Source: an uncultured Planctomycetales bacterium (GTDB taxonomy: Bacteria > Omnitrophota > Gorgyraeia > Gygaellales > Profunditerraquicolaceae). From it: a stretch of 64,000 nucleotides of DNA. Below, piece after piece: positions 1 to 56,290 of the stretch. Location of the stretch: the NCBI GenBank assembly GCA_964579435.1, contig CAZOGI010000001.1, positions 157,907 through 221,906 on the forward strand, in the 5' to 3' direction. A program made the position numbers and the translations under genes. A model generated the notes under the pieces. It saw only the letters and a list, made by a program, of their open reading frames with translations, was not told the DNA's origin and did not search any database. Numbering within the stretch: the stretch's first letter is position 1; every line of letters starts with the position of its first letter.

Positions 1-480
1 ATAGGGAATAAAGCGTTTGCAGTCAAACGACACCAGCCCCGAGAACTGCCAGTCATCGAGAACCGCTTTGTGCTTGACGACGCCGACATCGATCGAGTGC
101 GGATGGATACTGATGTGCTGAAAGCCGACGGTTGCTTTCAGGCGTTCGCCGGAAAAAGCGGCGTAGCGGAATCCGTAGCCTCCCCCCATATACGTCGGAT
201 AATCCAGTTCGTCCGCCGCCCCGGGGTGCTGCTTGATATATCCCGCCCCGCCCTTGAGGTCGACGCTGAATCGCTGCGTCAATCCGTACGAAAGCAGGAA
301 AAAATCCTGCCACGAGCGCAACTCGCCGGCAGAATGCTCCTGATAGCGGTTCAGGAGCGCATAGCTCTGCAGGCCGATCACGACCTGCCGCTTTTGCGGC
401 TGCGTCGGCCCCATGCAGGGCGCTGCCGTGGCAACCGCGGCCCAGGCCGTCAGAAGAAACCCGATCAGAAAAACCCTCAT
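1..480 (-). CDS. Exported protein, N-terminal 160 aa only (runs off the left edge); possible outer-membrane beta-barrel
   Basis: Hand translation of the reverse strand from ATG 480..478 gives MRVFLIGFLLTAWAAVATAAPCMG... with no stop down to position 1. It has a Sec-type signal peptide. The ATGA overlaps the stop of the upstream gene at 477. It is absent from the ORF track because it is truncated. Confidence 0.45.
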   Translation of the reverse strand, partial: MRVFLIGFLLTAWAAVATAAPCMGPTQPQKRQVVIGLQSYALLNRYQEHSAGELRSWQDFFLLSYGLTQRFSVDLKGGAGYIKQHPGAADELDYPTYMGGGYGFRYAAFSGERLKATVGFQHISIHPHSIDVGVVKHKAVLDDWQFSGLVSFDCKRFIPY

Positions 481-1145
481 TGTCGCTTTCCTGCAGGAAA
501 CCCCCGCAGCGGACACTCCCCGCAGCGCGGATGCTGTTTATGGCAGTATTCTTTCGCGACCCTGACGAACAACGCGTGGTATTCGTTAAATAATTGTACC
601 TCTTTTTTCAGGTTTTTCATGAAAAATTTTTGCGCCTCCTCGTAGGAGACATCCTCCGGCAGCAGACGGTGACGCGCCAGAACGCGTTTCGTGTAGGCAT
701 CGACCACGAAAACCGGGCGGGCGAAGGCATAGAGAAGGATAGAGTCGGCGGTTTCCGGCCCCACGCCGTTGATCCGCAGCAACTCCTCCCGCAACTGCTC
801 CTGCGGCACCTGACGCAGTCGCGTCAGCCGGCCGCCGCAACGCCGCATCAGCCAGCCGAGTGTATTGCGCAGCCGTTGCGCCTTGAGCCGGTAATATCCC
901 GCGGGCCGGATCAACCGCTGCAATCTGCCGGTGCGTATGGATAAAACCCCCCGGAGAGAGAGTGCACGCGCCGCCCTGAGGTTACGGATCGCGCGCTCGA
1001 CGCTACCCCAGTTGGTGTTCTGGGTCAACACCGCTCCGACAATGACTTCGCAGGGGGTGCGCGCCGGCCACCACCCCTGCGGACCAAAATGCCGATAGAG
1101 CAGGCGAAAAAGGGAGCGCACCAGAACCTGTTCCGTGGCCGACAT
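477..1145 (-). CDS. Endonuclease III-like HhH-GPD DNA glycosylase with C-terminal 4Fe-4S cluster loop
   Basis: HhH motif LLRINGVGPETADSILLYAF, GPD-like region VVDAYTKRVLAR, and C-terminal CHKQHPRCGECPL. I place the start at internal ATG 1145 (MSATEQ), 4 nt after the upstream stop, rather than at the ORF-track start 1214. Confidence 0.8.
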   Translation of the reverse strand: MSATEQVLVRSLFRLLYRHFGPQGWWPARTPCEVIVGAVLTQNTNWGSVERAIRNLRAARALSLRGVLSIRTGRLQRLIRPAGYYRLKAQRLRNTLGWLMRRCGGRLTRLRQVPQEQLREELLRINGVGPETADSILLYAFARPVFVVDAYTKRVLARHRLLPEDVSYEEAQKFFMKNLKKEVQLFNEYHALFVRVAKEYCHKQHPRCGECPLRGFPAGKRQ

Positions 1146-1149
1146 ACGG

Positions 1150-3111
1150 TTATTCGGAGAACTGCAAGGGGTTATAGCCGTAATAGGCGAAGAGCGTGTA
1201 GGCGGTGCCGGCAACCGAACCAGTGGCTTTACCTTTGGGAGTCACCCAGCCATGGCCGGTATCAACCGACTGTTCCGAGGCATACGGCAGACAACCCTGC
1301 CCTTGTCCCGACGGAGAGGGACTGGAAATAACCATCTTTGCCAACTCATTGAGATAGGCGCTGGCCTTTTCTGCATAGAGCGCGGCCTTCGCGGCCTCGT
1401 TGCGCGAAGCAAAATAGCGCGAGAGGATCTGATACGAAACGACCATCTGGGCGGTCCATTCCGGGGAAACGATGCCGCCGCGGGCCAGGTGCCGCTGCGC
1501 CGCGAAATCAAACCCGCGCACGCGCACCGCCGCTCCCTCCGGGCGCACATAGGAAACCTCGACGCCGCACTGGGTCTCGGCGAACGCCATGATCTCCTGC
1601 GGATCCATGCCCAGCTCGCTGAGCTTTTCCGGTCCGATGCTGGCAATCGACCAGGCATAGGTATCGGTGGCCACCGTAGCATCGCCTTTGCCGCGCTGCA
1701 CCGGAACCTCGCCGCGGTCATAGGTATGCGCCTGGAGCCAGGAGAGCACCCGTTCCGCCGCCTGCTGGTATCGCTCGTGCCCGGTCATACGGCTCAGCAG
1801 ACGGTAAAAAGCGTAGGCATCCAGATTGTGCTCGGTAGCAAACCAGGAGACGTTGGGTCCGCCGCGGATACCGCCGCCGTCATCCTCCTGCTGCAACTGC
1901 AAGATGGCCGCGGCAATCTCCTGCGCCAGCGGCAGAAAGGTCTCGTCACCGGTCTGGCGGGTATACTGCAGCGCCGCGATTCCCAGCCAGATATTGGGTC
2001 CGGCATGCACGACGTATTCCGCAGGCGTCCCGTCGTTGAAATAATAGGCGTTGACGAAGCGGCCGTCGATGCGTTTTGCCCGCTGCGCGAAAAAGGCCAG
2101 GATATTCCGGGCGCGCGCCGCGTCGTTGAAGAGCAGGTACGCCTGCACCGCCAGCGCCTGGTCGTACACGAACGCCCAGCCGCCGACGGCATCGTCCCCT
2201 TCAAAACTCAAGACCAGGCCGGTGCGCGGATTCTGGTGCACCGCCAGCCACTGATACATTTTCTGGATATTGGCCTTCTCCAAGACCGCCTTACGGTGGA
2301 CCAGACGCGCTATCTGGGTGCTCGTCTGCGCCTCATTGGTCCGGACCCGCTGGAGGCGATGCTGCAGGATCGAGCGCTCCGTCAGGAGCTTGCCGATAAG
2401 CGTGTTGAGCTTGCTCAGGCGCTCTTCCTGGCGCAGGGACGAGGTACGCGCCGCCTCCAGATCGTTCAGATGTACCTCCAGCCGCTGCAACTTCTGTTGC
2501 AGATCCGCGCGCGCCGCGCTCAGGGAGTGGATCTGCTGCTCGGCCGCTGAGGTTTCCTGAGAGACTTTGACCAACTGGGAGATGAGCTGCTGGTTGCCGC
2601 TCACCAGCCGCGCGTTCCAAGCCGCGCTCAAAAGCAGACCGGCCCCCAGGAGAACGAAAATCCCGGCCACGATCGGCGCGGTCAACACGCGCGTCCAGGC
2701 AAAACGCAAAAGCATCCTGCCGTCCGCGGCATCGATCTGCTCATAGCGGACGCCGAAGAGATACCGGCCGACCCCGTCGGTATCCTGGCGCATCCAGGCC
2801 GCGGCGCCGCGGGCACTGACCAGGCGCTTGGTGAACGGAGTCTCGATCTCGAGGGAGAATTGTGCCTTCTGGGAAGCGAGCTTTTCTGCGGCGTCGGCGG
2901 AGAAACGGTTAACCGTCAGACAGATCCCGCCTTTACCTATATTGTTGGTGAAACCCTGGAACCACTCGGAGAGAAAATGTTTCCCGTCGCAGCTGACGAG
3001 CCTAAACTCAACCGGCAACACCGTATCCAGACGCAGGTATTGGCGGCGGTTCGACCGGTTGCCGGTGCCGGGCTGCCCCAAAGACTTATGGTCGCTGGCC
3101 GGGATCGTCAT
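1150..3111 (-). CDS. PilZ-like domain / TM helix / long coiled coil / C-terminal (alpha/alpha)6-barrel glycosidase-like domain protein
   Basis: The N-terminus has RRQYLR (RxxxR) and NNIGKGG ((D/N)xSxxG-like). A hydrophobic helix follows (LTAPIVAGIFVLLGAGLLLSAAW). Then come about 130 aa of heptad-rich Q/L/E/R sequence, and a C-terminal region with GGWAFVYDQALAVQAYLLF-type repeats. Confidence 0.6.
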   Translation of the reverse strand: MTIPASDHKSLGQPGTGNRSNRRQYLRLDTVLPVEFRLVSCDGKHFLSEWFQGFTNNIGKGGICLTVNRFSADAAEKLASQKAQFSLEIETPFTKRLVSARGAAAWMRQDTDGVGRYLFGVRYEQIDAADGRMLLRFAWTRVLTAPIVAGIFVLLGAGLLLSAAWNARLVSGNQQLISQLVKVSQETSAAEQQIHSLSAARADLQQKLQRLEVHLNDLEAARTSSLRQEERLSKLNTLIGKLLTERSILQHRLQRVRTNEAQTSTQIARLVHRKAVLEKANIQKMYQWLAVHQNPRTGLVLSFEGDDAVGGWAFVYDQALAVQAYLLFNDAARARNILAFFAQRAKRIDGRFVNAYYFNDGTPAEYVVHAGPNIWLGIAALQYTRQTGDETFLPLAQEIAAAILQLQQEDDGGGIRGGPNVSWFATEHNLDAYAFYRLLSRMTGHERYQQAAERVLSWLQAHTYDRGEVPVQRGKGDATVATDTYAWSIASIGPEKLSELGMDPQEIMAFAETQCGVEVSYVRPEGAAVRVRGFDFAAQRHLARGGIVSPEWTAQMVVSYQILSRYFASRNEAAKAALYAEKASAYLNELAKMVISSPSPSGQGQGCLPYASEQSVDTGHGWVTPKGKATGSVAGTAYTLFAYYGYNPLQFSE

Positions 3112-3133: not shown

Positions 3134-5563
3134 TCATTCCTTCTGACCCTGCGATAGTTTGTTCTGCCGCAGGACTATATGTTGTTTGCACCGGTATGCC
3201 AGGCGCTGCATAAATTCCCTGAATGCCGCGTACTCCGGAAGCGGAACCGTTGATTTCTTACGCACCAGCTCCTGCCTAAAAAATATTGTATTCTTTTTCT
3301 GGCGGTATGCAACCGTAAAAGACAGCCAGGGACTGTCTTCAAAGAAACTCTCCGGAAGCGAAAGGACGCTCAGGCTTGCAGGCAATTCGATCTGGAACTC
3401 ATTCTCCTTGGCTTCCAGGCATTCAAATTCAAGCGGATAGCTGCGCCTGGCCAGGGCGACCGCTGACACATCCAGGGAGGGAAGCTGCGGGATGATGCGC
3501 AGCGATCCGGCGCGCGCGAAATACTCCGGCCCGCGGAAAGAGTACCGCAGCAACGGCGTCTCTCCCAGCCCGGCGGCGTTCCTGGTCTCGTACCGGGACA
3601 GCTGCGCCCCGATAGAAAAATCCTGTATCCTGCCGGCCAGCTCCTGCTCGATGAGCTCCGGGGGCGTGAAGAGGAACCAGTGGCGCATGGCCTGCGCGTT
3701 CAGCCCGTAGGAAAGAACCGTCCGCTCCGCCAAAACCGATTCAGCATCAGCCTGTACCCACAGCTTCAGATCCTGCTTAAGCAGATTGTGGGCGGCCGCA
3801 AACGCCGGCGTCCGCAGGATCCGGTAGCCGTCGGGGCCGCAGAGCAGCACCGTGCGGTCCTGGTCGCCCAGCGGCAGATCCCCGAACGAGCAGGTCTGTG
3901 CCGTCGGATCGAGAAAAACCGTCTCCCCGTCGATCTCGGTGGCGGCGATACAATGGTTAAAGAGCACCGTCGAGAAATCGGCGCGCATGTCGGGCAGCTC
4001 CTTTGTCGGGATAAGCACCGGCCATCCCGGCAGCCCGGCGGCGCGCAGCATCGTCACCAAGAGAACCGCCTGATCTTTACAGTCGCCGTACTTGTTGCGG
4101 AAGATATCGGCGGCGGCGTGCGGCTCATACCCGGCCTCGCCGTATTCGACCGCGACATAGCGGATCTCCTGCGCACAATACTCGTAGAGCGCCTCTGCGC
4201 GTTCCCGCGGCGAACGCGCAGAACGCAGGAGCTCCCCGATTTTAGCCTGGATCGCCTCGTCCGCCCGGATCTTATCCTTCGCCAGATTCCACCACCACTC
4301 GTACACCTCCTGCCAGTCGTCAAACGTCGACAACAACACCGTCGGATTGATCCGGGCCTCCTCGGGCATGAGCGGCTCGGGAATGATCTGGGGGATATCC
4401 GCCATCACCCACTCATAGGCCGGCCCCCGCGCGGTCTCGGTTACGACCGGCTGCATCTTTACCCCGAAAGAGTTGTATTCCTCGTTGAGCAGGAGCGAAG
4501 AGAGCCTGCGTCCCGGAGGCAGGCTGACCTGAAGCGCCGCGCGCATGATCGGCTCACCCGACTGCACCGGATAGCGCAGCACAAAATCCTTGCCGTTGAT
4601 GAGCTCGTGCGAGACGATACGCGCCCGGTACTCGACGACCGAACCGACCGCCACTTCGGGGAAAGAGATGATGAGAACGCGCGCGTTGCTGTAGAGGGGG
4701 AAATTCAGGTACTTCGAAACGTCCCGCAGGTGCCTCGTCCCGACGTCGACGACCGTCCCGTCGGGCTTGATCGTGCGGGCATACTCCAGCTCTATCTTTT
4801 CGTACGTCGAATCGTACTCGAGGGGCAGCTCCGAGAATGCCTCTTTGCCGCGCTCGTTGAGGATCTTAATGACGTAATGCAGGCTCGTCTCCTGGCCGTT
4901 GCCGGGGCCGACGCTTAAACGTTCGTCACAGAGCAGGATGAGGGCGCCCGCCTGCGGGTACCGCTCTTTCCCCGGGGCTGCGGCGATCAAGGCGCTGATC
5001 TCGGGAGCGGCATCTCTGATATGAACCAGTCCCATTTGGCGTTCGATCGCGCCGATGCGCTCGGCGGCCCGGCCGGCAAATGCGGGTTGGGTGATCAAAC
5101 GGTAGTGCTGCAACGCCTGATCAAAGAGGTTCAGTTTCTCGGCGGTGAGGGCGCGGAAATATCGCATTTCTTCGTCAACGGGATCGTGCGTGCGCAACAC
5201 CTCCAGGGCATCGGTATACTGCCCGAGCCGATACAGCGTTATCCCCAGGTATTTGCGTGCCTCGGGCAGTGCGCTTTGACGCAGATGCTCCAGGGCTTTC
5301 TCGAACTCCGCGTGATCGAAATAGAGCCTCCCCAGCGCCGCATGCGTGCGGTCGGTATCGATGCCGCGGAGCAAACCTTCCTGATAGCCTGCAACCGCTT
5401 GACGGTAATAGGACGCCGAAACCTCCGCCAAACGAGCGGGAGAAGCGAGTCGTTCCTGACGGCAGCCGCCGGCGCAGCAGAAAAATGCCCCCAGCAGGAA
5501 CGCGCTCCCCAGAAGAACGCCCCGCTTTTTTCCCCCGAAGCGATTACGTAACGCGGTATTCAT
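3134..5563 (-). CDS. Lipoprotein with TPR-like repeats, a DUF3857-like domain and a transglutaminase-like cysteine protease core
   Basis: The internal start MNTALRNRF (ATG 5563) is followed by lipobox-like LGAFFCCAGGC. The transglutaminase core is YGDCKDQAVLLVTMLRAAGLP plus NHCIAA. The 339-nt upstream ORF extension overlaps hypD and I treat it as non-coding. Confidence 0.75.
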   Translation of the reverse strand: MNTALRNRFGGKKRGVLLGSAFLLGAFFCCAGGCRQERLASPARLAEVSASYYRQAVAGYQEGLLRGIDTDRTHAALGRLYFDHAEFEKALEHLRQSALPEARKYLGITLYRLGQYTDALEVLRTHDPVDEEMRYFRALTAEKLNLFDQALQHYRLITQPAFAGRAAERIGAIERQMGLVHIRDAAPEISALIAAAPGKERYPQAGALILLCDERLSVGPGNGQETSLHYVIKILNERGKEAFSELPLEYDSTYEKIELEYARTIKPDGTVVDVGTRHLRDVSKYLNFPLYSNARVLIISFPEVAVGSVVEYRARIVSHELINGKDFVLRYPVQSGEPIMRAALQVSLPPGRRLSSLLLNEEYNSFGVKMQPVVTETARGPAYEWVMADIPQIIPEPLMPEEARINPTVLLSTFDDWQEVYEWWWNLAKDKIRADEAIQAKIGELLRSARSPRERAEALYEYCAQEIRYVAVEYGEAGYEPHAAADIFRNKYGDCKDQAVLLVTMLRAAGLPGWPVLIPTKELPDMRADFSTVLFNHCIAATEIDGETVFLDPTAQTCSFGDLPLGDQDRTVLLCGPDGYRILRTPAFAAAHNLLKQDLKLWVQADAESVLAERTVLSYGLNAQAMRHWFLFTPPELIEQELAGRIQDFSIGAQLSRYETRNAAGLGETPLLRYSFRGPEYFARAGSLRIIPQLPSLDVSAVALARRSYPLEFECLEAKENEFQIELPASLSVLSLPESFFEDSPWLSFTVAYRQKKNTIFFRQELVRKKSTVPLPEYAAFREFMQRLAYRCKQHIVLRQNKLSQGQKE

Positions 5564-6638
5564 AGGAAATGGCACAACTCCCTTCCCGGGAGACCATACA
5601 CGGCCCCAGCGGAGACTGCGGCCTACAGCGGCGCGCGAACAACGGGCAGCGCGGCGGATCGAGCTTTCCCCGCAACACCGCAGCACAGCGACAGCCTTCC
5701 CGGGGAGAAACCGGCTGCCTCTGCCTCCGCAGCGCAACGGCATGCCGGGCATCAAAATGAGCGAATTGCGCCCGGAAAGAGAATCCGCTTTCCGCGATAG
5801 AGCCGAACCCGCGCCAGACCGCAGCTTTCGGTTCGAAGACGCGATCCAGGATGCGCTGGGCATGCACATTACCCTGTGGCCGCACGACCCGGCTATATCC
5901 ATTCTCGACCCGCGCGATGCCGCGGCGCAACTGCCGCAACAGCGTCAAGATCCCGCAGAGCATATCCGCAGGCTCAAACCCGGCCACACAACAGCCGATG
6001 CCGTACGTCCGGGCAAACGGCTCATACGCGCGCGTCCCGATAATAACCGACACATGCCCGGGACAGAGGATGCCGCTGATATCGACACCCTTGCCGCGCG
6101 CCAGGAACGAGAGGACCGGCGGGATACGCTTGAGCGCGTTGAGAAAAAAAAGGTTCCCGACCTTCTGGCGGCTGGCCTGCAAAACCGCCAGCGCCACTGC
6201 CGGGGCAGTTGTTTCGAATCCGACACCCAAAAAGACAATCTTTTGTCGCGGATTCTCCCGCGCCAGGGAGAGAGCCTCCAGCGGCGAATAGACCGTGCGA
6301 ATCCGGGCACCGGCTGCACGCGCCGCGGCAAGACTGCCAAAACTGCCCGGGACCAGCAGCATGTCCGCGAAGGTCGCCACCTGAACCCCGGGCGAGCGGG
6401 CATAGGCGATCGCCGTATCGATATAGCGTTGGTCGCTGACGCAGATCGGACAGCCGGGACCGGAGACCAGGCGGACCGTCTTCGGCAGATACCGGTTCAG
6501 GCCGAAGCGGTGGAAGGCGCGGGTATGCGTCCCGCAGACCTCCATCAGGACCGCCGGTTCCCGCGGCGCAAAGCGCTGCAGAAGCCCTCCGAGCCGTTCC
6601 AGATGCCGCGGGGAGCGGAACTCGTCAACAAATCTCAC
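5544..6638 (-). CDS. hypD: [NiFe]-hydrogenase maturation factor HypD
   Basis: Motifs MEVCGTHT, GPGCPICV and GFETTAP, plus C-terminal Cys-rich motifs. It overlaps hypC by 14 nt. Confidence 0.9.
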   Translation of the reverse strand: MRFVDEFRSPRHLERLGGLLQRFAPREPAVLMEVCGTHTRAFHRFGLNRYLPKTVRLVSGPGCPICVSDQRYIDTAIAYARSPGVQVATFADMLLVPGSFGSLAAARAAGARIRTVYSPLEALSLARENPRQKIVFLGVGFETTAPAVALAVLQASRQKVGNLFFLNALKRIPPVLSFLARGKGVDISGILCPGHVSVIIGTRAYEPFARTYGIGCCVAGFEPADMLCGILTLLRQLRRGIARVENGYSRVVRPQGNVHAQRILDRVFEPKAAVWRGFGSIAESGFSFRAQFAHFDARHAVALRRQRQPVSPREGCRCAAVLRGKLDPPRCPLFARRCRPQSPLGPCMVSREGSCAISYEYRVT

Positions 6639-6837: not shown

Positions 6838-7983
6838 TTAACCCTGGAAAGAAGAAAACCGGCTCTTCGGTGAACAGGAAGCGATGACCGCCTGCCCGAG
6901 GGAGACCGACGCGTCCCCCGCGGGAAGCCGGCGATGCACCCGCACGCAAAACCCCGCTTTATATAGTAACGCACCCAGGTGCTCCCGCACAAGGGTATTG
7001 TGCATGACCCCGCCCGCAGCCACCACCGTGTTGATTCCCGTTCTGGCGCGCAGGCGCACGCATACCGCCGCAGCAAGGTGCGCCACGGAATAGTGCAGCG
7101 CGGCCGCAATATCCGCGCGGCTTTGTTTGGCCTTCAGGTCAACGACGATCCCGCGCACGATCCCACCGAGGGCAACCTCCAGGCATCCTGCACGTTCCCG
7201 CAGGCGGTACGGATACAGCCGCGGCGGGTTCCGGCTGCGGCGGGCCAGCGCTTCGAGTGCCCGCGGCAGCTGCGCCTCGGCGCACGAATCCCGGCAACAC
7301 AGGATGATGCTCGCCGCGGCATCAAAAAGACGCCCGGCGCTGCTGGAGAGCGGCGACGCAAATCCGCTGGCAGCCAGCGCCAGAACCGCCCGTGCTTTTT
7401 TGCGGGGAAGGCCTTTTAAAAAACTCAAGCCCTGCCGCCACAGACGCTCGCCGTAGAGACGCTGCAGCCATACCAAAGCCACCCGCCACGGCTCCCGGAT
7501 CGCCGCTTCTCCTCCGGGCAGAACAACAGTCTCAAGGTGCCCGGCGCGGATATAGCTGCGGTAATCGCAGATCAAAAACTCTCCTCCCCACAGCGTGCCG
7601 TCGCTGCCGTACCCGGTGCCGTCAAAAGCGATGCCGATCACCCGGCGGTTAGGCAGGCCGCTTTCGGCCATAGCCGCAGCGATATGCGCGTGGTGATGCT
7701 GGACGCGGACCAGGGCCACCCGGCGCCGGGCCGCCACCTCCTGCGCGTACCGGGACACGCTATAGCCTGGATGCAAATCCGCCGCCAGAACGTGCGGCCC
7801 CCTCTGCATCCACCGACGGACCGCTTCCCTGAAGCGCACGCGCTGGCGATACTCGCTGCAGTCGCCGTGGAGACGCGAGAAAGAGGCGGACCGGCCGGAG
7901 GCGAAACAGAGGGTATTTTTCGTTTCGGTGCCGAAGGCCAAAACCGGGGTCGGAACCGGGAAAGGCAGCGCAAGCCTATGCAT
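6838..7983 (-). CDS. hypF: HypF-like carbamoyltransferase, C-terminal Kae1/ASKHA-like domain only
   Basis: LAFGTETKNTLCF, DLHPGY, VQHHHAHIAA and FDGTGYGSDGTLWGGEF match the C-terminal half of HypF. There is no acylphosphatase, Zn-finger or YrdC-like region. I place the start at ATG 7983. Confidence 0.8.
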   Translation of the reverse strand: MHRLALPFPVPTPVLAFGTETKNTLCFASGRSASFSRLHGDCSEYRQRVRFREAVRRWMQRGPHVLAADLHPGYSVSRYAQEVAARRRVALVRVQHHHAHIAAAMAESGLPNRRVIGIAFDGTGYGSDGTLWGGEFLICDYRSYIRAGHLETVVLPGGEAAIREPWRVALVWLQRLYGERLWRQGLSFLKGLPRKKARAVLALAASGFASPLSSSAGRLFDAAASIILCCRDSCAEAQLPRALEALARRSRNPPRLYPYRLRERAGCLEVALGGIVRGIVVDLKAKQSRADIAAALHYSVAHLAAAVCVRLRARTGINTVVAAGGVMHNTLVREHLGALLYKAGFCVRVHRRLPAGDASVSLGQAVIASCSPKSRFSSFQG

Positions 7984-8818
7984 CGTTTCCCTCCGCAGCC
8001 ACCAGCTCCAACGAAACGATCGCATCGACCCGGAACGTCCGCTCGGCACCGCGCAGCAGGCAATGCCCGCGCACGTACGAAACGCCGTTTTCCTTGAGGA
8101 TCTGCTGCGGCACGATCAAACGTTGGCTGAGCGGGCCGCCGCTTTTCGCCAAGTAGCGAATCGCAAGGCGCGCCCCGTCGTCGATCGCCTCCTGGATGCG
8201 CGAGATCTTTTCCTGTTCGCGGGCAGCCAAAGCGCTGTGGGGAAGCGCACAAAGATCCAGGAACGTATCGGTATCCCTGATGCCTTTTGCCTGCAGCAGA
8301 CCAAGCAGGGCCAGAAAAACACGCGCGGTCAACTCCACATCCGCTCCGGCGCGGTGCGCCTGAGGAATGCCCAGGCCCAGCGCCTGCGCCACCGCCTGCA
8401 GCGAATAGCGCTCCTGTCCCGGCAAGAGCCGGCGCGCCAGCCGCAGGATATCCGCCACTATCATCTCTGCCGGTTCCGCCAACCCTGCCGCTGCAAGCTC
8501 GGCGCGCAAAAACGCCAGGTCAAAACGGGCGTTGTAGGCGCAGACGCAGCTGCCCTGGATAAAGCGCAGAAACTCCGGCAGCACCGCGCGGCAGACGGGC
8601 TTGCCCGCCAGCATTGCGTCGCTGATATGGTTGACCGCGAAGGCGGCCGGCGACACCGGGCGTTGCGGATCGATGAGTGTTTCAAAAACCGCCTCGGTCA
8701 CGTCCCCGCGCAGACGCAGTGCCGCCAACTCGACGATACGGTCTCCCGTCTCCGGATTCAGTCCGGTCGTCTCGGTATCGAATATGGTAAAAACGGTACG
8801 GTCAAGCGCCTGTCCCAT
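7976..8818 (-). CDS. DEDDh 3'-5' exonuclease (DnaQ/epsilon-like) fused to a C-terminal WYL-like domain
   Basis: Exo I is FDTETTGL, Exo II is AYNARFDLAFL and Exo III is HRAGADVELT. The C-terminus, IRYLAKSGGPLSQRLIVPQQILKENGVSYVRGHCLLRGAERTFRVDAI, resembles WYL ligand-sensing domains. Confidence 0.75.
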   Translation of the reverse strand: MGQALDRTVFTIFDTETTGLNPETGDRIVELAALRLRGDVTEAVFETLIDPQRPVSPAAFAVNHISDAMLAGKPVCRAVLPEFLRFIQGSCVCAYNARFDLAFLRAELAAAGLAEPAEMIVADILRLARRLLPGQERYSLQAVAQALGLGIPQAHRAGADVELTARVFLALLGLLQAKGIRDTDTFLDLCALPHSALAAREQEKISRIQEAIDDGARLAIRYLAKSGGPLSQRLIVPQQILKENGVSYVRGHCLLRGAERTFRVDAIVSLELVAAEGNDA

Positions 8819-27174: not shown

Positions 27175-27353
27175 AAAAAAAATCCCCGCCTGTGCCGTTG
27201 TAGCCTGGTGGGCTGTGAACCTTCCGGTTACACGTGGGTGCCCGCTCCGCAGGCACGCATGCGCCGCGGAAGAGAGGCTCCCTTTTTTTTGGTGTTGGCT
27301 CACCAATCACCAGGCTCTTGAACGAACACTGCAGGGACTCTTTTCTGCTGCAC
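27175..27353 (-). ncRNA. ssrS: Candidate 6S RNA (about 180 nt)
   Basis: It lies between a consensus sigma70 promoter and a U8 tract. Its 5' segment (27336-27308) pairs with its 3' segment (27210-27184) as a long closing stem. Both strands of the roughly 25/25-nt central bubble can form small hairpins. There is an imperfect 15-bp apical stem (27282-27236). It sits upstream of the ygfA homologue. Confidence 0.5.
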
Positions 27354-38481: not shown

Positions 38482-38558
38482 TGGTGGGCCCATGAGGACT
38501 CGAACCTCAGACCTTCACGATGTCAACGTGACGCTCTAACCAACTGAGCTATGAGCCC
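38482..38558 (-). tRNA. tRNA-Val (GAC), CCA encoded
   Basis: Hand fold: GGGCTCA/TGGGCCC acceptor, anticodon loop TTGACAT, T-loop TTCGAGT, 3' ACCA. Confidence 0.9.
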
Positions 38559-38583
38559 AACAACCGCTTGATTCCGTCTCAAA

Positions 38584-38666
38584 TGGGCAAGGAGGGATTC
38601 GAACCCTCACAGCCGTGAGGCCAACAGATTTTAAGTCTGTCGTGTATGCCATTCCACCACTTGCCC
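38584..38666 (-). tRNA. tRNA-Leu (TAA), class II with a long variable arm, no encoded CCA
   Basis: GGGCAAG/CTTGCCC acceptor, anticodon stem ACAGA/TCTGT, loop CTTAAAA, 15-nt variable arm, T-arm GAGGG-TTCGAAT-CCCTC. Confidence 0.85.
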
Positions 38667-38729
38667 GCAGCTTTTCTTCGCACCCGTTAGCGCGCGCGCC
38701 CTCCCTGCCGGTGCGCACGGGAGTGGGAA

Positions 38730-38804
38730 TGGAGGCGGCAAGCGGAATCGAACCGCTGGATAACTGTTTTGCAGACAGTTGCCTTGCCACTTGGCTATGC
38801 CGCC
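38730..38804 (-). tRNA. tRNA-Cys (GCA), CCA encoded
   Basis: GGCGGCA/TGCCGCC acceptor, anticodon stem ACTGT/ACAGT, loop CTGCAAA, T-loop TTCGATT. Confidence 0.9.
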
Positions 38805-41530: not shown

Positions 41531-42391
41531 TTACCCCCCTGCCATTTTGTCGACGAGCCGAGACAGGTCGTCGGGAGAGTAGAATTCTATCGCGATCTCC
41601 CCCCTCTTTTTACGTCTCGTAATGCGGACCTTGGTTCCCAATGCCTGCTGAAGCCGCTCCTCCGCCGCAACCAGCGACGGATCCTTGCCGGCGAGGGAGC
41701 GTATGCGCTGCCGGACCGCGCGCGGCGAGCGCCGGCGCAGGAGCGTCTCGAGCTCCCGCACCGACAACGCCTTGATGACCGCCTCGTGTGCAAGACGCCG
41801 CTGCAGGTGCGGATCATCCAGTTCCAGGAGTGCCCTGCCATGCGCAAAACTCAGGCGGCCGCCGCGGATATCCTCCTGCACCTCTGCGGGCAGATTCAAC
41901 AGCCGCAGGGTATTGGCAACGCTCGCGCGCGCCTTGCCCAGCACCACACTGATACGTTCCTGAGTGATCTGGAACTTATCGATGAGGTATTGGTACGCGC
42001 GCGCCTCTTCGATCGCGTTGAGATCCTGACGCTGGATGTTTTCGATAAGCGCGATCTCCAGCGCTTCCTGGTCGTTTGCCTCTTTCAAAAGAACCGGGAT
42101 TTCGCTCAATTGCAGATGCTGTGCGGCGCGGAACCGTCGTTCACCGGCGATCAACTCGAATATATCGCCCTTCTTGCGCGCGACAACCGGTTGGATAACT
42201 CCCTTTTCTTTGATCGACTGTATCAATTCCTGCATCCGCACCGGATCAAAATCCTCCCGCGGCTGCAGCGGATTCGGCCGCACCTGCTCGATCTTGGCAA
42301 GGATAACCGCTCCGCTTTCTTCTTGCAAAGATGCCCGCTCAGGTAACAACGCACTCAATCCCTTTCCTAAAGCTCGTTTTTCCATCCGCAT
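41531..42391 (-). CDS. parB: Chromosome partitioning protein ParB/Spo0J
   Basis: LGKGLSALL, PNPLQPREDFD, IAGERRFRAA and an HTH region. Confidence 0.9.
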   Translation of the reverse strand: MRMEKRALGKGLSALLPERASLQEESGAVILAKIEQVRPNPLQPREDFDPVRMQELIQSIKEKGVIQPVVARKKGDIFELIAGERRFRAAQHLQLSEIPVLLKEANDQEALEIALIENIQRQDLNAIEEARAYQYLIDKFQITQERISVVLGKARASVANTLRLLNLPAEVQEDIRGGRLSFAHGRALLELDDPHLQRRLAHEAVIKALSVRELETLLRRRSPRAVRQRIRSLAGKDPSLVAAEERLQQALGTKVRITRRKKRGEIAIEFYSPDDLSRLVDKMAGG

Positions 42392-42393
42392 CC

Positions 42394-43200
42394 TCAGCTA
42401 TTTATGGTTCCCGAAGAATTATCCAGACTGAAATCTGGCTTGGGTATTCCTAAAATCTCGCAGGCAAGCTCTTCATACTTTTGAGCGCCTAATGAATCCT
42501 TGTCATACAAAGAGATTGGTTTGCCGTAACTCGGTGCCTCTGTTAATCTTATGTTTCTTGGAATGACTGTTTTATAAACTTTTTCTCTAAAATACCCTCG
42601 CACCTCTTGAATAACTTCTTTGGTAAGATTTGTCCGGAAATCGGCCATAGTTAAAAGGACCCCTTCAATTTCCAGTCCGGGGTTGAGTGTTTCACGAACC
42701 AGCTTGACGGTATTCATCAGCTGCGTCAATCCTTCTAACGCATAATATTCGCACTGAACGGGAATGATAAGCGAGTCTGCCGCACAGAGCGCATTGATCG
42801 TCAGTAACCCCAGCGATGGCGGCGAATCGATGATCACGAAATCGAAATTGTTCTTTTCCTCGACAAGCGAGCGCTTCAGCTTATACTCGCGCCCCAGAGC
42901 TCCGACGAGCTCAACCTCTGCGCCGGTCAGGTCAAGATTTGCCGGCGCCACAAAGAAATTCGGGACCGCGGTTTCAACAACAACCCCCGCCAGCTTCTCC
43001 TCCTCCAAGAGAATATGGTATGTACTCTTCTTTACATCGTGCCGATTAATGCCTGCGCCGCTCGTTGCATTTGCCTGGGGGTCAAGGTCGATCAACAGAA
43101 CCCGCTTTTGCGCGCGCGCCAGATAGGCGGAAAGATTGATTGAAGTTGTCGTTTTCCCTGTTCCACCCTTCTGGTTGCAGATTGAAATTACCTTACCCAT
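42394..43200 (-). CDS. parA: Chromosome partitioning ATPase ParA/Soj
   Basis: Deviant Walker A NQKGGTGKTTTSINL, with IIDSPPSLG. Confidence 0.92.
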   Translation of the reverse strand: MGKVISICNQKGGTGKTTTSINLSAYLARAQKRVLLIDLDPQANATSGAGINRHDVKKSTYHILLEEEKLAGVVVETAVPNFFVAPANLDLTGAEVELVGALGREYKLKRSLVEEKNNFDFVIIDSPPSLGLLTINALCAADSLIIPVQCEYYALEGLTQLMNTVKLVRETLNPGLEIEGVLLTMADFRTNLTKEVIQEVRGYFREKVYKTVIPRNIRLTEAPSYGKPISLYDKDSLGAQKYEELACEILGIPKPDFSLDNSSGTINS

Positions 43201-43222
43201 TTAATTTCAAATAGTTACAAAT

Positions 43223-43238
43223 TGTTCCACGCGGAACA
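43223..43238. promoter_or_regulatory. parS-like 16-bp imperfect palindrome
   Basis: TGTTCCACGCGGAACA matches the consensus tGTTTCACGTGAAACa at 13/16 positions and lies 23 nt upstream of the parA start. Confidence 0.45.
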
Positions 43239-43273
43239 TTTTGATTGCCCTTGATTCTTTATCTATTGTCCTT

Positions 43274-43501
43274 TTATTTTGCCGGCTTGTCAAGTTTTTT
43301 GTCTGCTGCCGGAACTACGCTTACCCTTACCTTGGCTGGCTTTGCCCCCGCCATACCAAATAGCCCTCTTTCTTCCTCGCTAAGCACTTCTATCTTCACT
43401 TGCTTACGCGGGACCTTGAGCGCAACCAGGGCTTTATTAATAGCGTCCTCGAGATTTTTACCCTCAACCTCGATACTTTGAAATTCTTTATGCGGGGACA
43501 T
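43274..43501 (-). CDS. Jag/KhpB N-terminal-domain-only protein (75 aa)
   Basis: IEVEGKNLEDAINKALVALKVPRKQVKIEVLSEEERGLFG matches the Jag_N pattern. It sits in the canonical position after yidC. I place the start at ATG 43501. No KH or R3H domains are present. Confidence 0.6.
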   Translation of the reverse strand: MSPHKEFQSIEVEGKNLEDAINKALVALKVPRKQVKIEVLSEEERGLFGMAGAKPAKVRVSVVPAADKKLDKPAK

Positions 43502-45023
43502 TCTTGTACACTCTCGCTTGATAAATAAGCATGAGAAGGCTATTCGTGATCCAGTACAAAACAAGTCCGGAGGGAACGCGGTAAAACGCCATTCCAAAAA
43601 TTATCGGCATTAAGAAAAGCATCATCTTCTGCTGTTCATTGGCTCCAGCGGTTTTACTCATGGATATCTTCTGTTGAAAGAACATCGCAAGAGCCATGAG
43701 GATTGGTAATAAATTAATTTCGTTGCCTAAAAGCGGGAGGTGATTGGGCAAAAGCGCAATCCGGTCAGGCTCGGAAAGATCCTTAATCCAGAAAAACTCC
43801 GCACCTTTTAACGCAATAGAGCGAGGAAGCAGTTGAAGGAAGGCAACAAAAACGGGCATTTGCAATAACAGCGGCAAGCAGCCGCCCAAGGGATTGACTT
43901 TATGCTCCCGAAATAACTTCATTTGTTCTTGCTGAAATTTCTGGGGATTATCCTTATACAACTTCCTTAACTCTTCGAGTCGAGGTTGAATCATTTGCAT
44001 CTCTTTCATCGACTTTGTTTGCTTTATGGTCAATGGAAATAGCGCTATAAAAATTGTGCATGAAACGCCAATGATGGCCCATCCCCAGTTATTGAATAAC
44101 CTGTGGAAAAACTCAAGCAATTGAAGCAAAATTTGTGATATAAAATCAAAGGTTCCAAAATGAATAATCGACGCATACTCGGGATCAGCTTCTGAAAGCA
44201 GCTTTATAATCTGTGGGCCGGCAAATAATTTCAAATTTAACGCCTTCTTTTCTCCTGGTTTTAGCTCCATCAACGACTGCGGACTAAACGTCACCACAGA
44301 AACATTTTTATCCGGACGCGAGATTGATCCGTTAATTTTTACTGAATCATCAGATTGGACAATTAAAGCATAATATCTTGTTTTGAAAGCAATGAAGTCA
44401 ACATCTTTAAAGTCTGCCTTCTTTGAAGGAGCATAGGTAGTTGTATTATTTTTTTCCCTACTCACCACAACACTACTATATTGTAAATCGCTTGCCCCCT
44501 GCTTCAAATCAAAACTTCCCAGAACAACTGGAAAATTTACCGTACGAACATTACTTCCAATATTCTCAACTTCAAATTTAAGATTTCCTTGAACACTATT
44601 CTTAAAAGATAGAATCCTTTTAATTCTAAATTCTCTATCTTCACTAACCGAAATAATGGAATTATTAATTAAATTAGATTCACTAATAATAAAATTATTA
44701 TTAAACCCAACTATTTCTAAGGCATTAAATAACAACATGTTACCACCACCAAAAACTTTTCCAAACTTCAACTCAAACAATGACCCGGTTAAGCCATTAA
44801 ATACCGCCTTAAAATGTCCAAAGTTAAATTCCTTTTTGGACATTTCTTTAACATTTTGCAGATCGTTCTTTTTTATTTCTGGCGGGAGGATTTCTTTTGA
44901 AGACAGCGGCTCTTGTTCAGATCGCAGAAGGAGCGGGGACGGCTGTTGCTTTGGCAAAACGGACGACCAAATAAACAATACCACCGCTGACAAGAAAATA
45001 GCCAAAATCAGTCTTTTTTCCAT
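43488..45023 (-). CDS. yidC: Membrane protein insertase YidC
   Basis: N-terminal TM helix, a large periplasmic domain, and the conserved C-terminal core (NPLGGCLPLLLQMPVF..., LPILMA, VPSGLVLYW). Confidence 0.92.
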   Translation of the reverse strand: MEKRLILAIFLSAVVLFIWSSVLPKQQPSPLLLRSEQEPLSSKEILPPEIKKNDLQNVKEMSKKEFNFGHFKAVFNGLTGSLFELKFGKVFGGGNMLLFNALEIVGFNNNFIISESNLINNSIISVSEDREFRIKRILSFKNSVQGNLKFEVENIGSNVRTVNFPVVLGSFDLKQGASDLQYSSVVVSREKNNTTTYAPSKKADFKDVDFIAFKTRYYALIVQSDDSVKINGSISRPDKNVSVVTFSPQSLMELKPGEKKALNLKLFAGPQIIKLLSEADPEYASIIHFGTFDFISQILLQLLEFFHRLFNNWGWAIIGVSCTIFIALFPLTIKQTKSMKEMQMIQPRLEELRKLYKDNPQKFQQEQMKLFREHKVNPLGGCLPLLLQMPVFVAFLQLLPRSIALKGAEFFWIKDLSEPDRIALLPNHLPLLGNEINLLPILMALAMFFQQKISMSKTAGANEQQKMMLFLMPIIFGMAFYRVPSGLVLYWITNSLLMLIYQARVYKNVPA

Positions 45024-45039
45024 TGTTTGCCTTTATGCG

Positions 45040-45255
45040 CTAATGAGGCGGATCATAGAGTGGGCCGCGGGTAAAAGGATGGCACCGCAAAATGCGCCGG
45101 CAGGCTTTTAAGCCGCCACACCAAAAACCCCACCGGGAAATCGATTCCTTCGCATACTCCGAACAACTGGGGATATAACGACAGCTGGGCGGCAGGAGCC
45201 CGCGGAAAAACCGCTGATACGTCGCAAGGAACAAAAGCGCTATCCGTCGGCCCAT
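45040..45255 (-). CDS. yidD: Membrane protein insertion efficiency factor YidD
   Basis: CRYIPSCSEYAKESI...RILRCHPF..GPLYDPP. Confidence 0.9.
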   Translation of the reverse strand: MGRRIALLFLATYQRFFRGLLPPSCRYIPSCSEYAKESISRWGFWCGGLKACRRILRCHPFTRGPLYDPPH

Positions 45256-45393
45256 TTAAGCCGCCAGGCGCTTTCTGCCCTTTTTCCGACGACGGGCGAT
45301 CAATTGCCTCCCGGTGCGCGTGCTCATCCTCGCCCGAAAACCATGCTTGCGTTTTGCGACGATCTTGGTCGGCGTCTTCAGATTTTTTTTCAT
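45256..45393 (-). CDS. rpmH: 50S ribosomal protein L34 (45 aa)
   Basis: Hand translation gives [56 protein letters not shown] lies upstream. It is below the ORF-track cutoff. The stop TAA abuts the yidD ATG. Confidence 0.9.
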
Positions 45394-45566
45394 TTTGCTC
45401 TCCCTCGGTAAGTGGCAACTCCGTCGAATTGGGATAAATTATAACACATTGTTATCTCAAGTCAACACTAAATGTTTCGACTCTAGAAAAATCTGCAAAG
45501 CAAAACCCCGATGGGATTTTCTCGGGCGGCGCAAAACACAGAAGGGACTGTCGTTTCAATTTTATG

Positions 45567-45594
45567 TTGACTTCCCGAAAAGGGGCTGTATAAT
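45567..45594 (+). promoter_or_regulatory. Candidate sigma70 promoter for dnaA
   Basis: TTGACT (45567-45572), a 16-nt spacer, then TATAAT (45589-45594), about 95 nt upstream of the dnaA ATG. Confidence 0.45.
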
Positions 45595-45639
45595 AATCAA
45601 ACGATTTTAAAATACCTGTCCTTTTTAGCCTGACAAAAT

Positions 45640-45690
45640 CTTTCCACAGAGTTATTCAGTTTGTTGATAAACTGTGGATTCTGTGCACAT
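45640..45690. promoter_or_regulatory. Cluster of three DnaA-box-like 9-mers
   Basis: CTTTCCACA (45640-45648), TGTGGATTC (45673-45681, reverse complement GAATCCACA) and palindromic TGTGCACA (45682-45689). Each matches TTATNCACA at 7/9. Confidence 0.35.
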
Positions 45691-47038
45691 GAACACACAA
45701 GACCTTTCTCTTATATGGAATACCGTCCGGGATACGCTGCGGGAAAAGCTCGGCGAGACGGTCTTTGAAACCTGGATAGCGCCCCTCCAGTGCAAAAACC
45801 AGTCGAAAGAGACGGTAACCATTGAAGCCCCCGATATATTTTTCTGCGAATGGATAGAGAAACACTACAAACTTGCTCTTTCACAAGCCTTCGGAAGCGT
45901 CACCAAAAGCCAACCTTCGGTCCTCCTGGAGGTAAGCGGGCAGACGCCACGACCGACCATCCCAGCGCCGGAAACCGCGCCGGCACCTCCAGAGAGCGCC
46001 TTCGAGCCGCATGAACGCGCCGGGCTGAACCCCCGCTATACATTCGACAATTTCGTGATCGGACCTTCCAACCGCCATGCACACGCCTATTCCCTCGCCG
46101 TCGCCGAATCCCCGGCAAAGTCGTACAACCCCCTTTTCATCTACGGGGGAGTGGGGTTGGGCAAAACGCACCTGATGCAGGCGATCTGCCACCACATCCG
46201 GCAAAAAAACGGGCCGCAGACAAAGATCTGCTATACCTCATCGGAAAAATTCATGAATGAGTTGATTTTGGCGATCAAGGACCGCTCGACGCACGAGTTC
46301 CGGCAAAAGTATCGCGGCCTTGACGTGCTCGTGATCGACGACGTACATTTCTTTGCCGGCCGGGAGGCAACCCAGGAAGAGTTCTTTCACACCTTCAACG
46401 CGCTCTACGACGAACACAAACAGATCATCATGTCTTCCGACCGTCCACCCCGGGAAATCGCCAACTTACAGGATCGCCTGGTATCTCGTTTCGGTTGGGG
46501 GCTGGCCACGGATATCCAGCCGCCCGACATGGAAACGCGCGTGGCGATACTCAAGAAAAAGATCGAGCGCGAACCCGTCCAGGTCCCCGACGATGTTTTG
46601 TTCTTTATCGCTCAACTTATCCGCACCAATATCCGCGAACTGGAAGGTGCCCTGGTCCGTACGATCGCGTATGCGCTGCTCGAAGAAGAGCCGATCACGC
46701 TGGGGTTGGCAAAACATGTTTTAAAGGATCTCCTCAAAGAACCCAAAAAATTGATCACTGTCGACTTTATTCAACGCTGTGTCGCCGAAGAATTCGGGAT
46801 ATCTCTCTACGACCTCAAAACGAAGCGCCGCACCCGCACCATTGTATTGCCGCGACAGATCGCCATGTATTTGAGCCGGGAGTTGACCGATTTATCTTTT
46901 CCGGAAATTGGCGGTTTTTTTGGGGGGAAAGACCATACGACGGTTTTGCATGCGTGTAACAAAATCAAGGAAGTGGTACGTACGGATGAGGTTTTACAAA
47001 GGCAAATTGAACACATTATCACGGTTATTAAACAATGA
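45689..47038 (+). CDS. dnaA: Chromosomal replication initiator DnaA
   Basis: Walker A GGVGLGKTHL, a box VII/sensor region, and the C-terminal DNA-binding domain (R..IVLPRQIAMYLSRELT..S.PEIG..FGGKDHTTVLHA). I prefer ATG 45689 over GTG 45674. Confidence 0.93.
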   Translation: MNTQDLSLIWNTVRDTLREKLGETVFETWIAPLQCKNQSKETVTIEAPDIFFCEWIEKHYKLALSQAFGSVTKSQPSVLLEVSGQTPRPTIPAPETAPAPPESAFEPHERAGLNPRYTFDNFVIGPSNRHAHAYSLAVAESPAKSYNPLFIYGGVGLGKTHLMQAICHHIRQKNGPQTKICYTSSEKFMNELILAIKDRSTHEFRQKYRGLDVLVIDDVHFFAGREATQEEFFHTFNALYDEHKQIIMSSDRPPREIANLQDRLVSRFGWGLATDIQPPDMETRVAILKKKIEREPVQVPDDVLFFIAQLIRTNIRELEGALVRTIAYALLEEEPITLGLAKHVLKDLLKEPKKLITVDFIQRCVAEEFGISLYDLKTKRRTRTIVLPRQIAMYLSRELTDLSFPEIGGFFGGKDHTTVLHACNKIKEVVRTDEVLQRQIEHIITVIKQ

Positions 47039-47047
47039 TTGCAGGGG

Positions 47048-47170
47048 GTATACACAGTCCTTTTTTGTGGTAACTTTTTTAATAGGTGTGAGATCGGAGG
47101 TTTTAAACAGGAATGTAACCGCATTACTATAATACGATTACTATTTTTTTAAAATTACTTATTAATAGTA
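47048..47170. other. Candidate oriC element: DnaA boxes plus an AT-rich unwinding region in the dnaA-dnaN spacer
   Basis: GTATACACA (47048-47056) matches at 8/9 and TGTGGTAAC (47066-47074) at 6/9. An AT-rich stretch then carries three ATTACTWAT repeats (47123-47130, 47137-47144, 47154-47162). Confidence 0.45.
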
Positions 47171-47185
47171 GAAAAGGAGTGGTTG

Positions 47186-48277: not shown

Positions 48278-48285
48278 GGCGTCGC

Positions 48286-51025
<2,740 letters not shown>

Positions 51026-51028
51026 CCC

Positions 51029-53461: not shown

Positions 53462-53466
53462 ATCGC

Positions 53467-53541
53467 GTCCCCATCGTCTAGCCTGGTCTAGGACAAGAGC
53501 TTTTCAAGCTCTCGACCGGGGTTCAAATCCCCGTGGGGACA
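53467..53541 (+). tRNA. tRNA-Glu (TTC), no encoded CCA
   Basis: GTCCCCA/TGGGGAC acceptor, anticodon stem AGAGC/GCTCT, loop TTTTCAA, T-arm CGGGG-TTCAAAT-CCCCG. Confidence 0.9.
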
Positions 53542-53590
53542 GGAATTGTTTTGCCGCCGGCCCGGCATTCTGGCCAAGAAAGGTGTTGGC

Positions 53591-56097: not shown

Positions 56098-56290
56098 GCG
56101 CCAGAAACCGTTTTCGTTTTGCCGCCGTCGAGCCCTTGCATTTGCGCCTTCCCCGAGATACATTTTAAGTGCCATTTATACGGGTTGTTTTAGACAATGA
56201 TTCCTTCCGGCGTGGAGGGCGCCGGAGGGGGAGCCGGTTTGTGCCGGATCTGCCTTATGCAAAGGGTCAGGTCCGGCTTTCTTTTTGCCT

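Follow-up and report, generated by a model that had tools for sequence, protein, structure and literature searches.

Can a receptor for cyclic di-GMP (c-di-GMP) in the cytoplasm govern an enzyme on the far side of the membrane when both are parts of one polypeptide? The question is raised by a gene for a 653-amino-acid (aa) protein in a 64,000-nucleotide stretch of an Omnitrophota genome (GenBank assembly GCA_964579435.1, contig CAZOGI010000001.1, positions 157,907 to 221,906; hereafter the window), in which an earlier note made from the sequence alone saw a PilZ-like receptor joined through a transmembrane (TM) helix and a coiled coil to a glycosidase-like barrel. We find that this four-part membrane protein is real and is conserved across the Omnitrophota, and that its barrel belongs to an unclassified family. 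We put at about 50% the probability that it is a bitopic inner-membrane effector working inside-out, in which c-di-GMP controls a glycan-cleaving barrel in the periplasm.

The open reading frame (ORF) was found at exactly the coordinates first assigned to it, with an ATG start and a TAA stop at positions 1150-1152; the 471-aa ORF that the opposite strand shows at 1135..2550 is a shadow artefact of the high GC content (~0.61 in the window). The ORF is a real, conserved gene, because more than 1,180 database homologues are recovered at E ≤ 1e-3 and the 120 best span the full length (635-669 aa) at 50-55% identity. Named records are nearly always from Candidatus Omnitrophica/Omnitrophota. Scanning one genome per species with two barrel peptides as query, we found stretches encoding a relative in at least 435 species-level genomes, and the 80 loci kept from these are overwhelmingly from metagenome-assembled and single-amplified genomes of Omnitrophota. 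'Candidatus Undivivens', a name among the relatives' records, belongs to the same phylum, and the label 'uncultured Planctomycetales' on some third-party annotation (TPA) records is presumably a labelling convention. At all 74 species-level loci that could be evaluated, the PilZ part lies ahead of the barrel. The earlier note knew of no characterization of this exact architecture, and no description of the fusion was found in the PilZ census or in the searchable literature on Omnitrophota with PilZ or c-di-GMP and on PilZ with glycoside hydrolases; but it is not rare, and defines a large Omnitrophota family so far labelled 'hypothetical protein' or 'PilZ domain-containing protein'. Counts of invariant motif residues and of linker length below come from a 43-sequence family alignment, and motif and topology counts from 42 divergent representatives, each standing for a cluster at ≤50% identity with the PilZ-TM-barrel architecture.

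By profile, motifs and modelled secondary structure, the N-terminal domain reads as a canonical PilZ domain, and we predict that it binds c-di-GMP. Pfam PilZ (PF07238) matches aa 21-137 with 24.1 bits against a gathering cut-off of 22.5; it matches 39 of the 43 aligned relatives (best E 5.7e-8) and scores above cut-off in seven of the nine divergent representatives tested. The signature proposed at the outset, RRQYLR and NNIGKGG about 30 residues apart, is present, and its two motifs are conserved across the family; in the window protein R22-R23-Q-Y-L-R27 precedes N56-N57-I-G59-K-G-G62, with 29 residues between R27 and N57. The alignment shows R23, R27 and G62 without variation, N or D at position 57, and G, S, A or C at position 59. 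All 42 divergent representatives carry RxxxR, and [D/N]x[S/G/A/C/T]xxG lies at canonical spacing in 39 of them, mostly with the canonical Ser. A family profile aligns motif for motif with Bacillus subtilis YpfA/MotI (PDB 5vx6). In the AlphaFold2 (AF2) model, six beta strands (aa 26-40, 51-58, 62-67, 83-90, 97-109 and 117-126) are followed by a long helix from aa 128, the layout that Galperin and Chou call 'canonical' (10.1101/814665), and the predicted local distance difference test score (pLDDT) in this region is ~73-88. A fold search with the full-length model returned barrel matches only, with no PilZ match and nothing for the linker. The universal retention of RxxxR among the representatives argues that ligand binding has been kept, and the PilZ census reports that PilZ domains in fusion proteins invariably keep c-di-GMP binding (10.1101/814665).

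The protein contains exactly one hydrophobic segment, the single helix of the original description, with a Kyte-Doolittle maximum of 2.38 over 19 residues; in all 42 divergent representatives a TM segment lies at about residue 126-151. No N-terminal signal peptide was found in the 653-aa protein, and K and R residues around the helix number three on the N-flank and one on the C-flank, a positive-inside bias. Since the PilZ domain must face the cytoplasm to meet its ligand and a single TM helix stands between it and the barrel, the barrel should be extracytoplasmic. Export is independently supported by stand-alone paralogues of the barrel, which carry cleavable signal peptides leading directly into the same barrel start, 'xxYxWL..Q..TGL'. 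The proposed topology, with the sensor in the cytoplasm and the C-terminal domain in the periplasm, is thus supported by these predictions, which speak against a cytoplasmic C-terminal domain.

Membrane and barrel are joined by a helical linker, from aa 167 to ~290, in which Q, E, K, R and L make up 52% of residues and P and G only 2%; the heptad-rich coiled coil of ~130 residues first described is therefore present as a helical element, at the shorter length of ~120 aa. In the full-length AF2 model (predicted TM-score, pTM, 0.69) a single helix over aa 128-224 comprises the PilZ C-terminal helix, the TM helix and the first arm of the linker, and after a break at aa 225-228 a second helix spans aa 229-291. 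Both arms have fixed lengths in 43 of 43 sequences, exactly 55 aa for aa 167-221 and exactly 56 aa for aa 232-287. Indels are confined to the midpoint, the least conserved stretch (11% identity). Its length ranges between 8 and 36 aa, mostly in heptad increments, and 27 of the 43 sequences have 11, 18, 25 or 32 aa there. Because equal, invariant arms flank a variable centre and the site of indels is exactly central, we favour an antiparallel hairpin with 55- and 56-aa arms as the most likely geometry, and such a hairpin would return the barrel towards the membrane surface. Heptad quantization fits a continuous coiled coil as well, so we put the hairpin forward as a proposal; that both arms keep their exact lengths points to some mechanical or geometric constraint linking sensor and barrel.

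The C-terminal part is an (alpha/alpha)6 barrel, as the repeats noted earlier had implied, although it occupies ~370 aa (aa 284-653) and not ~330. No other segment of the protein is as well conserved: mean identity to the window protein is 63%, and 101 of its 370 columns, enriched in G, D, Y, F and W, do not vary. Its best structural and sequence matches are glycan-active: the Mycolicibacterium hassiacum methylmannose-polysaccharide endo-alpha-1,4-mannosidase MmpH (PDB 7QSJ), glycoside hydrolase families GH76, GH15 and GH88, and sugar epimerases. Sequence searches of the PDB with the single protein or a narrow family profile gave nothing significant; a broad profile that includes distant paralogues matched GH76 structures at E 2.7e-6 and 5.4e-6, and we therefore regard the barrel as a genuine remote relative of GH76. 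Membership in GH76 was rejected. Pfam GH76 (PF03663) gives the window protein 19.2 bits against a gathering cut-off of 25.9, and reaches E ≤ 0.01 in 19 of 43 family members. In GH76 two consecutive Asp residues act as nucleophile and acid/base, and here their place is taken by an invariant Gly-Pro: 'YDDNIW' (4mu9) aligns to 'SGPNIW' in every alignment, the mutant 6shm (D136A/D137A) showing AA there, and G371 is conserved in 100% of a set of 59 divergent paralogue domains. The term glycosidase-like thus holds for the fold and its nearest matches, which are glycan-active, and does not extend to membership in GH76: the barrel founds an unclassified family, a remote relative of GH76 that is structurally closest to MmpH.

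With the dyad of its nearest relatives absent, a new active-site arrangement is probable. The acidic residues listed in Table 1 are joined by D477, which shares the GDxTxATDxY motif with D483 and is conserved in 93% of the paralogue domains, by Y316 (98%) and Y610 (95%), and by D431, D535, W375 and W622, all highly conserved; E427 aligns to non-acidic positions in GH76. The conserved acidic and aromatic residues mostly lie where inner helices begin, or in the loops leading into them, as is usual for (alpha/alpha)6 active sites, and E551 stands at the start of a late inner helix in the AF2 model. We propose that the barrel probably cleaves a glycan, and that it would do so with an acidic set of its own (D317, E427, D477, D483 and E551) in an aromatic-lined pocket in place of an Asp-Asp dyad. 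MmpH is an inverting enzyme in which the acid is D47 or D50, in the alphaA-alphaB loop, and the base is E262, with N101 contributing to the site (PMC9883506). Spacings are similar, running from D317 to N373 (+56) and E551 (+234) in the barrel and from D47 to N101 (+54) and E262 (+215) in MmpH, and by this analogy we offer D317 and E551 as candidate acid and base.

The barrel also occurs apart from PilZ. Its profile, run against 1.84 billion representatives, recovers 1,266 clusters at E ≤ 1e-3 and 150 at ≤ 1e-30. These include signal-peptide-plus-barrel proteins of ~370-450 aa, and large or giant proteins of 1,000-7,886 aa in which the barrel is embedded (E 1e-30 to 1e-63), the named ones being from Omnitrophota; one cluster includes a Candidatus Auribacterota protein. 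No Pfam family above cut-off covers the barrel in the paralogues examined. A GH76-like fold, visible by structure prediction only, has been reported in an 'Archaeovorin'-type giant protein of Omnitrophota, and the same preprint describes small pilZ genes directly following giant genes, with type II secretion-like loci also accompanying them (10.1101/2023.11.21.568195); that GH76-like module is plausibly the same domain family as our barrel. Among the giant barrel proteins, P0190, P0210, P0216, P0255, P0259, P0264 and P0195 span 3,000-7,900 aa, and in P0195 the barrel is found together with TPR, a GT2 glycosyltransferase and a B12-binding radical-SAM domain; none of the seven is encoded in the window. 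The most divergent protein with the PilZ-linked architecture is P0219 (locus L088; barrel E 2e-45), whose PilZ domain, at 20.7 bits, falls under the cut-off with both c-di-GMP motifs still present. Its neighbours are different as well (a divergent TPR protein and a PqqD-like gene), a sign that it represents a paralogous subfamily.

We propose that the PilZ domain would bind c-di-GMP in the cytoplasm through R23/R27 and N57-x-G59-x-x-G62. Its C-terminal helix would pass through the TM helix into the periplasmic linker, providing unbroken coupling that far, and ligand binding would alter helix packing or oligomerization. Either change would in turn switch what the barrel does, where it sits or which partners it binds, and the level of the second messenger would thereby be tied to remodelling of an envelope glycan, or possibly of a prey-surface glycan.

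The next gene upstream on the same strand had been described as a transglutaminase-like lipoprotein, so that both genes pointed to envelope functions. Its product has the transglutaminase core with an intact Cys495/His537/Asp552 triad, and an N-terminal signal peptide followed by cysteines, but its lipobox is not canonical. The longest upstream ORF (3134-5902, minus strand, 922 aa) overlaps hypD; its real start is almost certainly Met114, since this yields an 809-aa protein with a signal peptide that fits homologues of 784-812 aa. The gene lies directly upstream of the PilZ gene in 41 of 65 evaluable species-level loci; at the remaining 24 its place next to the PilZ gene is taken by an RNase_T-WYL, PabC-like or HypD gene. 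Three genomes at ~51-52% identity keep the order transglutaminase-like, PilZ, HhH-GPD with gaps of 2-3 nt, in a block that is collinear over its whole 15-18 kb; in the divergent locus L087 the transglutaminase-like and PilZ genes remain paired with a 4-nt overlap amid otherwise different neighbours. We conclude that the two genes are truly associated, though not in every genome, and we rejected an obligatory operon. Since 24 of 65 genomes lack the gene at this position, its presence is weak evidence of function. Within an otherwise collinear block it behaves as a presence/absence polymorphism (loci including L017, L023, L039, L041 and L048).

Downstream, the HhH-GPD gene is found in 67 of 72 loci and is replaced in L087; as its adjacency reflects the long collinear block, we do not count it as part of the system. 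No GGDEF or HD-GYP motif occurs in window ORFs of >150 aa (ExLxR matches are by chance), no bcs genes lie near the PilZ-barrel gene, and no GT2 synthase was found in the conserved neighbourhood. Rfam detected only four tRNAs and a 6S RNA in the window, and no c-di-GMP riboswitch. In the same collinear block, a 280-aa DEDD exonuclease (RNase_T)-WYL fusion, conserved in L001, L003, L005 and L087, joins a nuclease to a ligand-sensing regulatory domain, which is an unusual combination. The adjoining hypD is intact; the HypF-like gene beside it encodes only ~370-400 aa and homologous loci match HypF C-terminal domains only, so it may lack the acylphosphatase and zinc-finger N-terminus. In some related loci (L001, L087) the hyp genes are absent.

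How far the evidence favours an inside-out effector depends on what else the parts might do, and several observations count against it. The window protein exceeds the PilZ cut-off by only 1.6 bits and has Gly for the motif Ser. The GH76 catalytic dyad is absent from the barrel, and the candidate acid and base residues rest on spacing and topology, without residue-level superposition: the sequence route to an alignment with MmpH failed, 7QSJ being absent at E ≤ 10 with all three queries (the protein by itself, family profile A3 and broad profile A4). Model confidence (pLDDT) is low in the most conserved loops, and indels in heptad steps suit a continuous coiled coil as well as a hairpin. Surrounding gene order reflects general collinearity, and the neighbourhood lacks any polysaccharide synthase, exporter, diguanylate cyclase or c-di-GMP riboswitch. 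The missing dyad would also fit a barrel that is a non-catalytic docking or binding module in the periplasm, which binds, releases or positions the upstream transglutaminase-core protein, or binds glycan without cleaving it; the model is LapD, which in its c-di-GMP-bound state captures LapG, a transglutaminase-like protease. That protein is exported with an intact Cys-His-Asp transglutaminase/protease triad, its gene, where directly upstream, sits at a gap of 2-22 nt or a 4-nt overlap, the pair persists in a divergent locus whose other neighbours have changed, and inside-out control by c-di-GMP of a periplasmic transglutaminase-like protease is established (PMC3032545, PMC4359373). We nevertheless think a docking role unlikely: more than a third of the evaluable genomes (24/65) have no partner gene at the position, the neighbour matches Pfam Transglut_core and DUF3857 and not the LapG family, and the conserved acidic and aromatic inner-helix residues are common to paralogues in other contexts, which fits an active site better than a partner interface.

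The barrel might instead be a constitutive glycan hydrolase tethered in the periplasm, with PilZ serving for c-di-GMP-dependent recruitment, oligomerization or localization (for example, to a pilus, secretion or division machine), or with ligand binding lost in some lineages. The PilZ C-terminal helix is a known protein-protein element that mediates dimerization of Alg44 (10.1101/814665), and small pilZ genes and type II secretion-like loci stand beside Omnitrophota giant genes (10.1101/2023.11.21.568195); moreover, the second motif was not found in three of the 42 representatives and one subfamily member falls under the PilZ cut-off. Against such a tether, which we rate as distinctly unlikely, the retention of RxxxR in all 42 argues that ligand is still bound, and arms of exact length suggest a mechanical or geometric constraint and not a passive link. 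Chemistry of other toroid enzymes (terpenoid cyclase or dehydratase activity, LanC-like thioether formation or prenyl binding) comes to mind because linalool dehydratase, squalene-hopene cyclase-type and LanC-like proteins are among the fold or sequence matches, and because C515, C607, H428 and H620 are invariant in the PilZ-linked family. However, the only significant sequence relationship is with GH76; the Cys residues and H620 lie outside the paralogue-conserved set and are unlikely to be catalytic, and the two exported Cys more likely form a disulfide. We regard LanC or terpene-cyclase-type chemistry, and non-glycan chemistry as a whole, as highly improbable.

Table 1. Coordinates of the features discussed, numbered from the first position of the window
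Feature	Position	Strand	Basis or remark
PilZ-TM-helical linker-(alpha/alpha)6 barrel protein, 653 aa (whole gene)	1150..3111	-	ORF list and homologues
PilZ domain, aa 21-137, cytoplasmic	2701..3051	-	Pfam PF07238
RxxxR c-di-GMP motif, R23-Q-Y-L-R27	3031..3045	-	Alignment
[D/N]xSxxG c-di-GMP motif, N57-I-G59-K-G-G62	2926..2943	-	Alignment; Ser replaced by Gly
Single TM helix, ~aa 142-166	2614..2688	-	Hydropathy; continuous with PilZ C-terminal helix
Linker arm 1, aa 167-224, periplasmic helix	2440..2613	-	AF2 helix
Helix break and variable linker centre, aa 225-228, putative hairpin tip	2428..2439	-	AF2 break; indels
Linker arm 2, aa 229-283	2263..2427	-	AF2 helix aa 229-291
Exported (alpha/alpha)6 barrel, aa 284-653, unclassified GH76-related family	1153..2262	-	
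D317, candidate catalytic acid	2161..2163	-	95% of 59 paralogue domains
Gly371-Pro372, at GH76 catalytic Asp-Asp position	1996..2001	-	Alignment to GH76 structures
E427, motif TEHNLD	1831..1833	-	100% of 59 paralogue domains; invariant in profile A4
D483, motif GDxTxATDxY	1663..1665	-	100% of 59 paralogue domains
E551, motif SxEWTxQM, candidate catalytic base	1459..1461	-	98% of 59 paralogue domains
Downstream neighbour, HhH-GPD/endonuclease III-like	477..1145	-	Pfam; 4 nt after PilZ-gene stop
Upstream neighbour, exported TPR-DUF3857-Transglut_core-DUF3858 protein, 809 aa	3134..5563	-	Pfam
HypF-like gene and adjoining hypD	6838-8049 and 5544-6638	-	
DEDD exonuclease (RNase_T)-WYL fusion	7976-8818	-	
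6S RNA	27179-27340	-	Rfam, 61.4 bits
Three-tRNA cluster	38485-38804	-	Rfam
Replication-origin region	41531-55429		
parB	41531-42391	-	
parA	42394-43200	-	
yidC	43488-45023	-	
dnaA	45674-47038	+	dnaN, gyrB, gyrA, a tRNA and glmS also +
Fourth tRNA, between gyrA and glmS	53467-53541	+	Rfam
1,734-aa ORF	56285-61489	+	

Elsewhere in the window lies a replication-origin region (Table 1). Between 42 and 48 kb the GC content drops to 0.43-0.48 from ~0.61, and the cumulative GC skew is lowest at ~44-46 kb, from which we place oriC probably in the gap at 45.0-45.7 kb. A 1,734-aa ORF further on has no Pfam match at E ≤ 1e-5 and no match to the barrel profile, and is a large uncharacterized protein in a phylum known for very large genes.

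To our knowledge, c-di-GMP effectors act, with few exceptions, in the cytoplasm or on synthases in the membrane, and LapD is the paradigm for passing the signal outward. What would be new here is a PilZ effector with an extracytoplasmic, enzyme-type output drawn from an unclassified barrel family; the inside-out route may itself be new. If the barrel is controlled as we propose, a PilZ domain connected through one TM helix and a linker of fixed arm lengths to an exported enzyme would constitute a compact second outward route, and one that, being a single polypeptide, is easy to test. The barrel represents an unclassified branch of the six-hairpin glycosidase superfamily, with its 1,266 representative clusters, in a phylum with almost no experimental genetics whose giant proteins share it, and a small soluble barrel domain could reveal what those giant proteins do. 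The fullest version of the inside-out reading is doubtful: a PilZ device specific to Omnitrophota and mechanistically distinct from LapD, in which c-di-GMP would directly gate an exported, dyad-less GH76-related enzyme, the module also used in giant 'Archaeovorin'-type proteins implicated in prey cell-wall attack, and so would switch degradation of envelope or prey-surface glycan in ultra-small predatory or epibiotic bacteria, possibly together with the transglutaminase-fold neighbour.

Among known systems, the closest in layout is Alg44, the alginate co-polymerase of Pseudomonas aeruginosa, which likewise has an N-terminal cytoplasmic PilZ domain whose C-terminal helix couples and dimerizes, a single TM helix and a periplasmic C-terminal domain (10.1101/814665). 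The periplasmic part of Alg44 is HlyD- or membrane-fusion-like, whereas no HlyD-type profile matches the Omnitrophota protein at E ≤ 1, and Alg44-type proteins associate with an Alg8-type synthase, whereas the conserved neighbourhood here has no GT2 synthase. In module content the protein is like a fusion, across the membrane, of BcsA (PilZ) with the periplasmic GH8 (alpha/alpha)6 endoglucanase BcsZ; in the Bcs system, however, these are separate proteins and PilZ regulates a cytoplasmic glycosyltransferase, whereas here they form one polypeptide without a glycosyltransferase domain. LapD-LapG shares the coupling of a cytoplasmic c-di-GMP receptor across the membrane to a periplasmic output (PMC3032545, PMC4359373), and a transglutaminase-fold enzyme is encoded next door in 41 of the 65 loci here. 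LapD differs in having a degenerate EAL domain (GGDEF-EAL), a HAMP domain and a periplasmic Cache-like domain, PilZ being the only domain we detect on the cytoplasmic side, and the neighbour here, a Transglut_core and DUF3857 protein, does not match LapG and is absent from roughly a third of the genomes.

The barrel itself stands apart from the GH76 alpha-1,6-mannanases (BcGH76/Aman6, BT3792 and BT_3782) in having an invariant Gly-Pro for the dyad and a Pfam score below cut-off, and in that the aligned region of GH76 offers no equivalent of its universal E427, D483 and E551. MmpH is closely similar in structure, but it is only 14% identical to the barrel and is a soluble, cytoplasmic enzyme from a biosynthetic cluster. 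In the giant Omnitrophota proteins that contain it, the barrel is one module among many and has no covalent link to PilZ, unlike the family described here, in which the two are fused.

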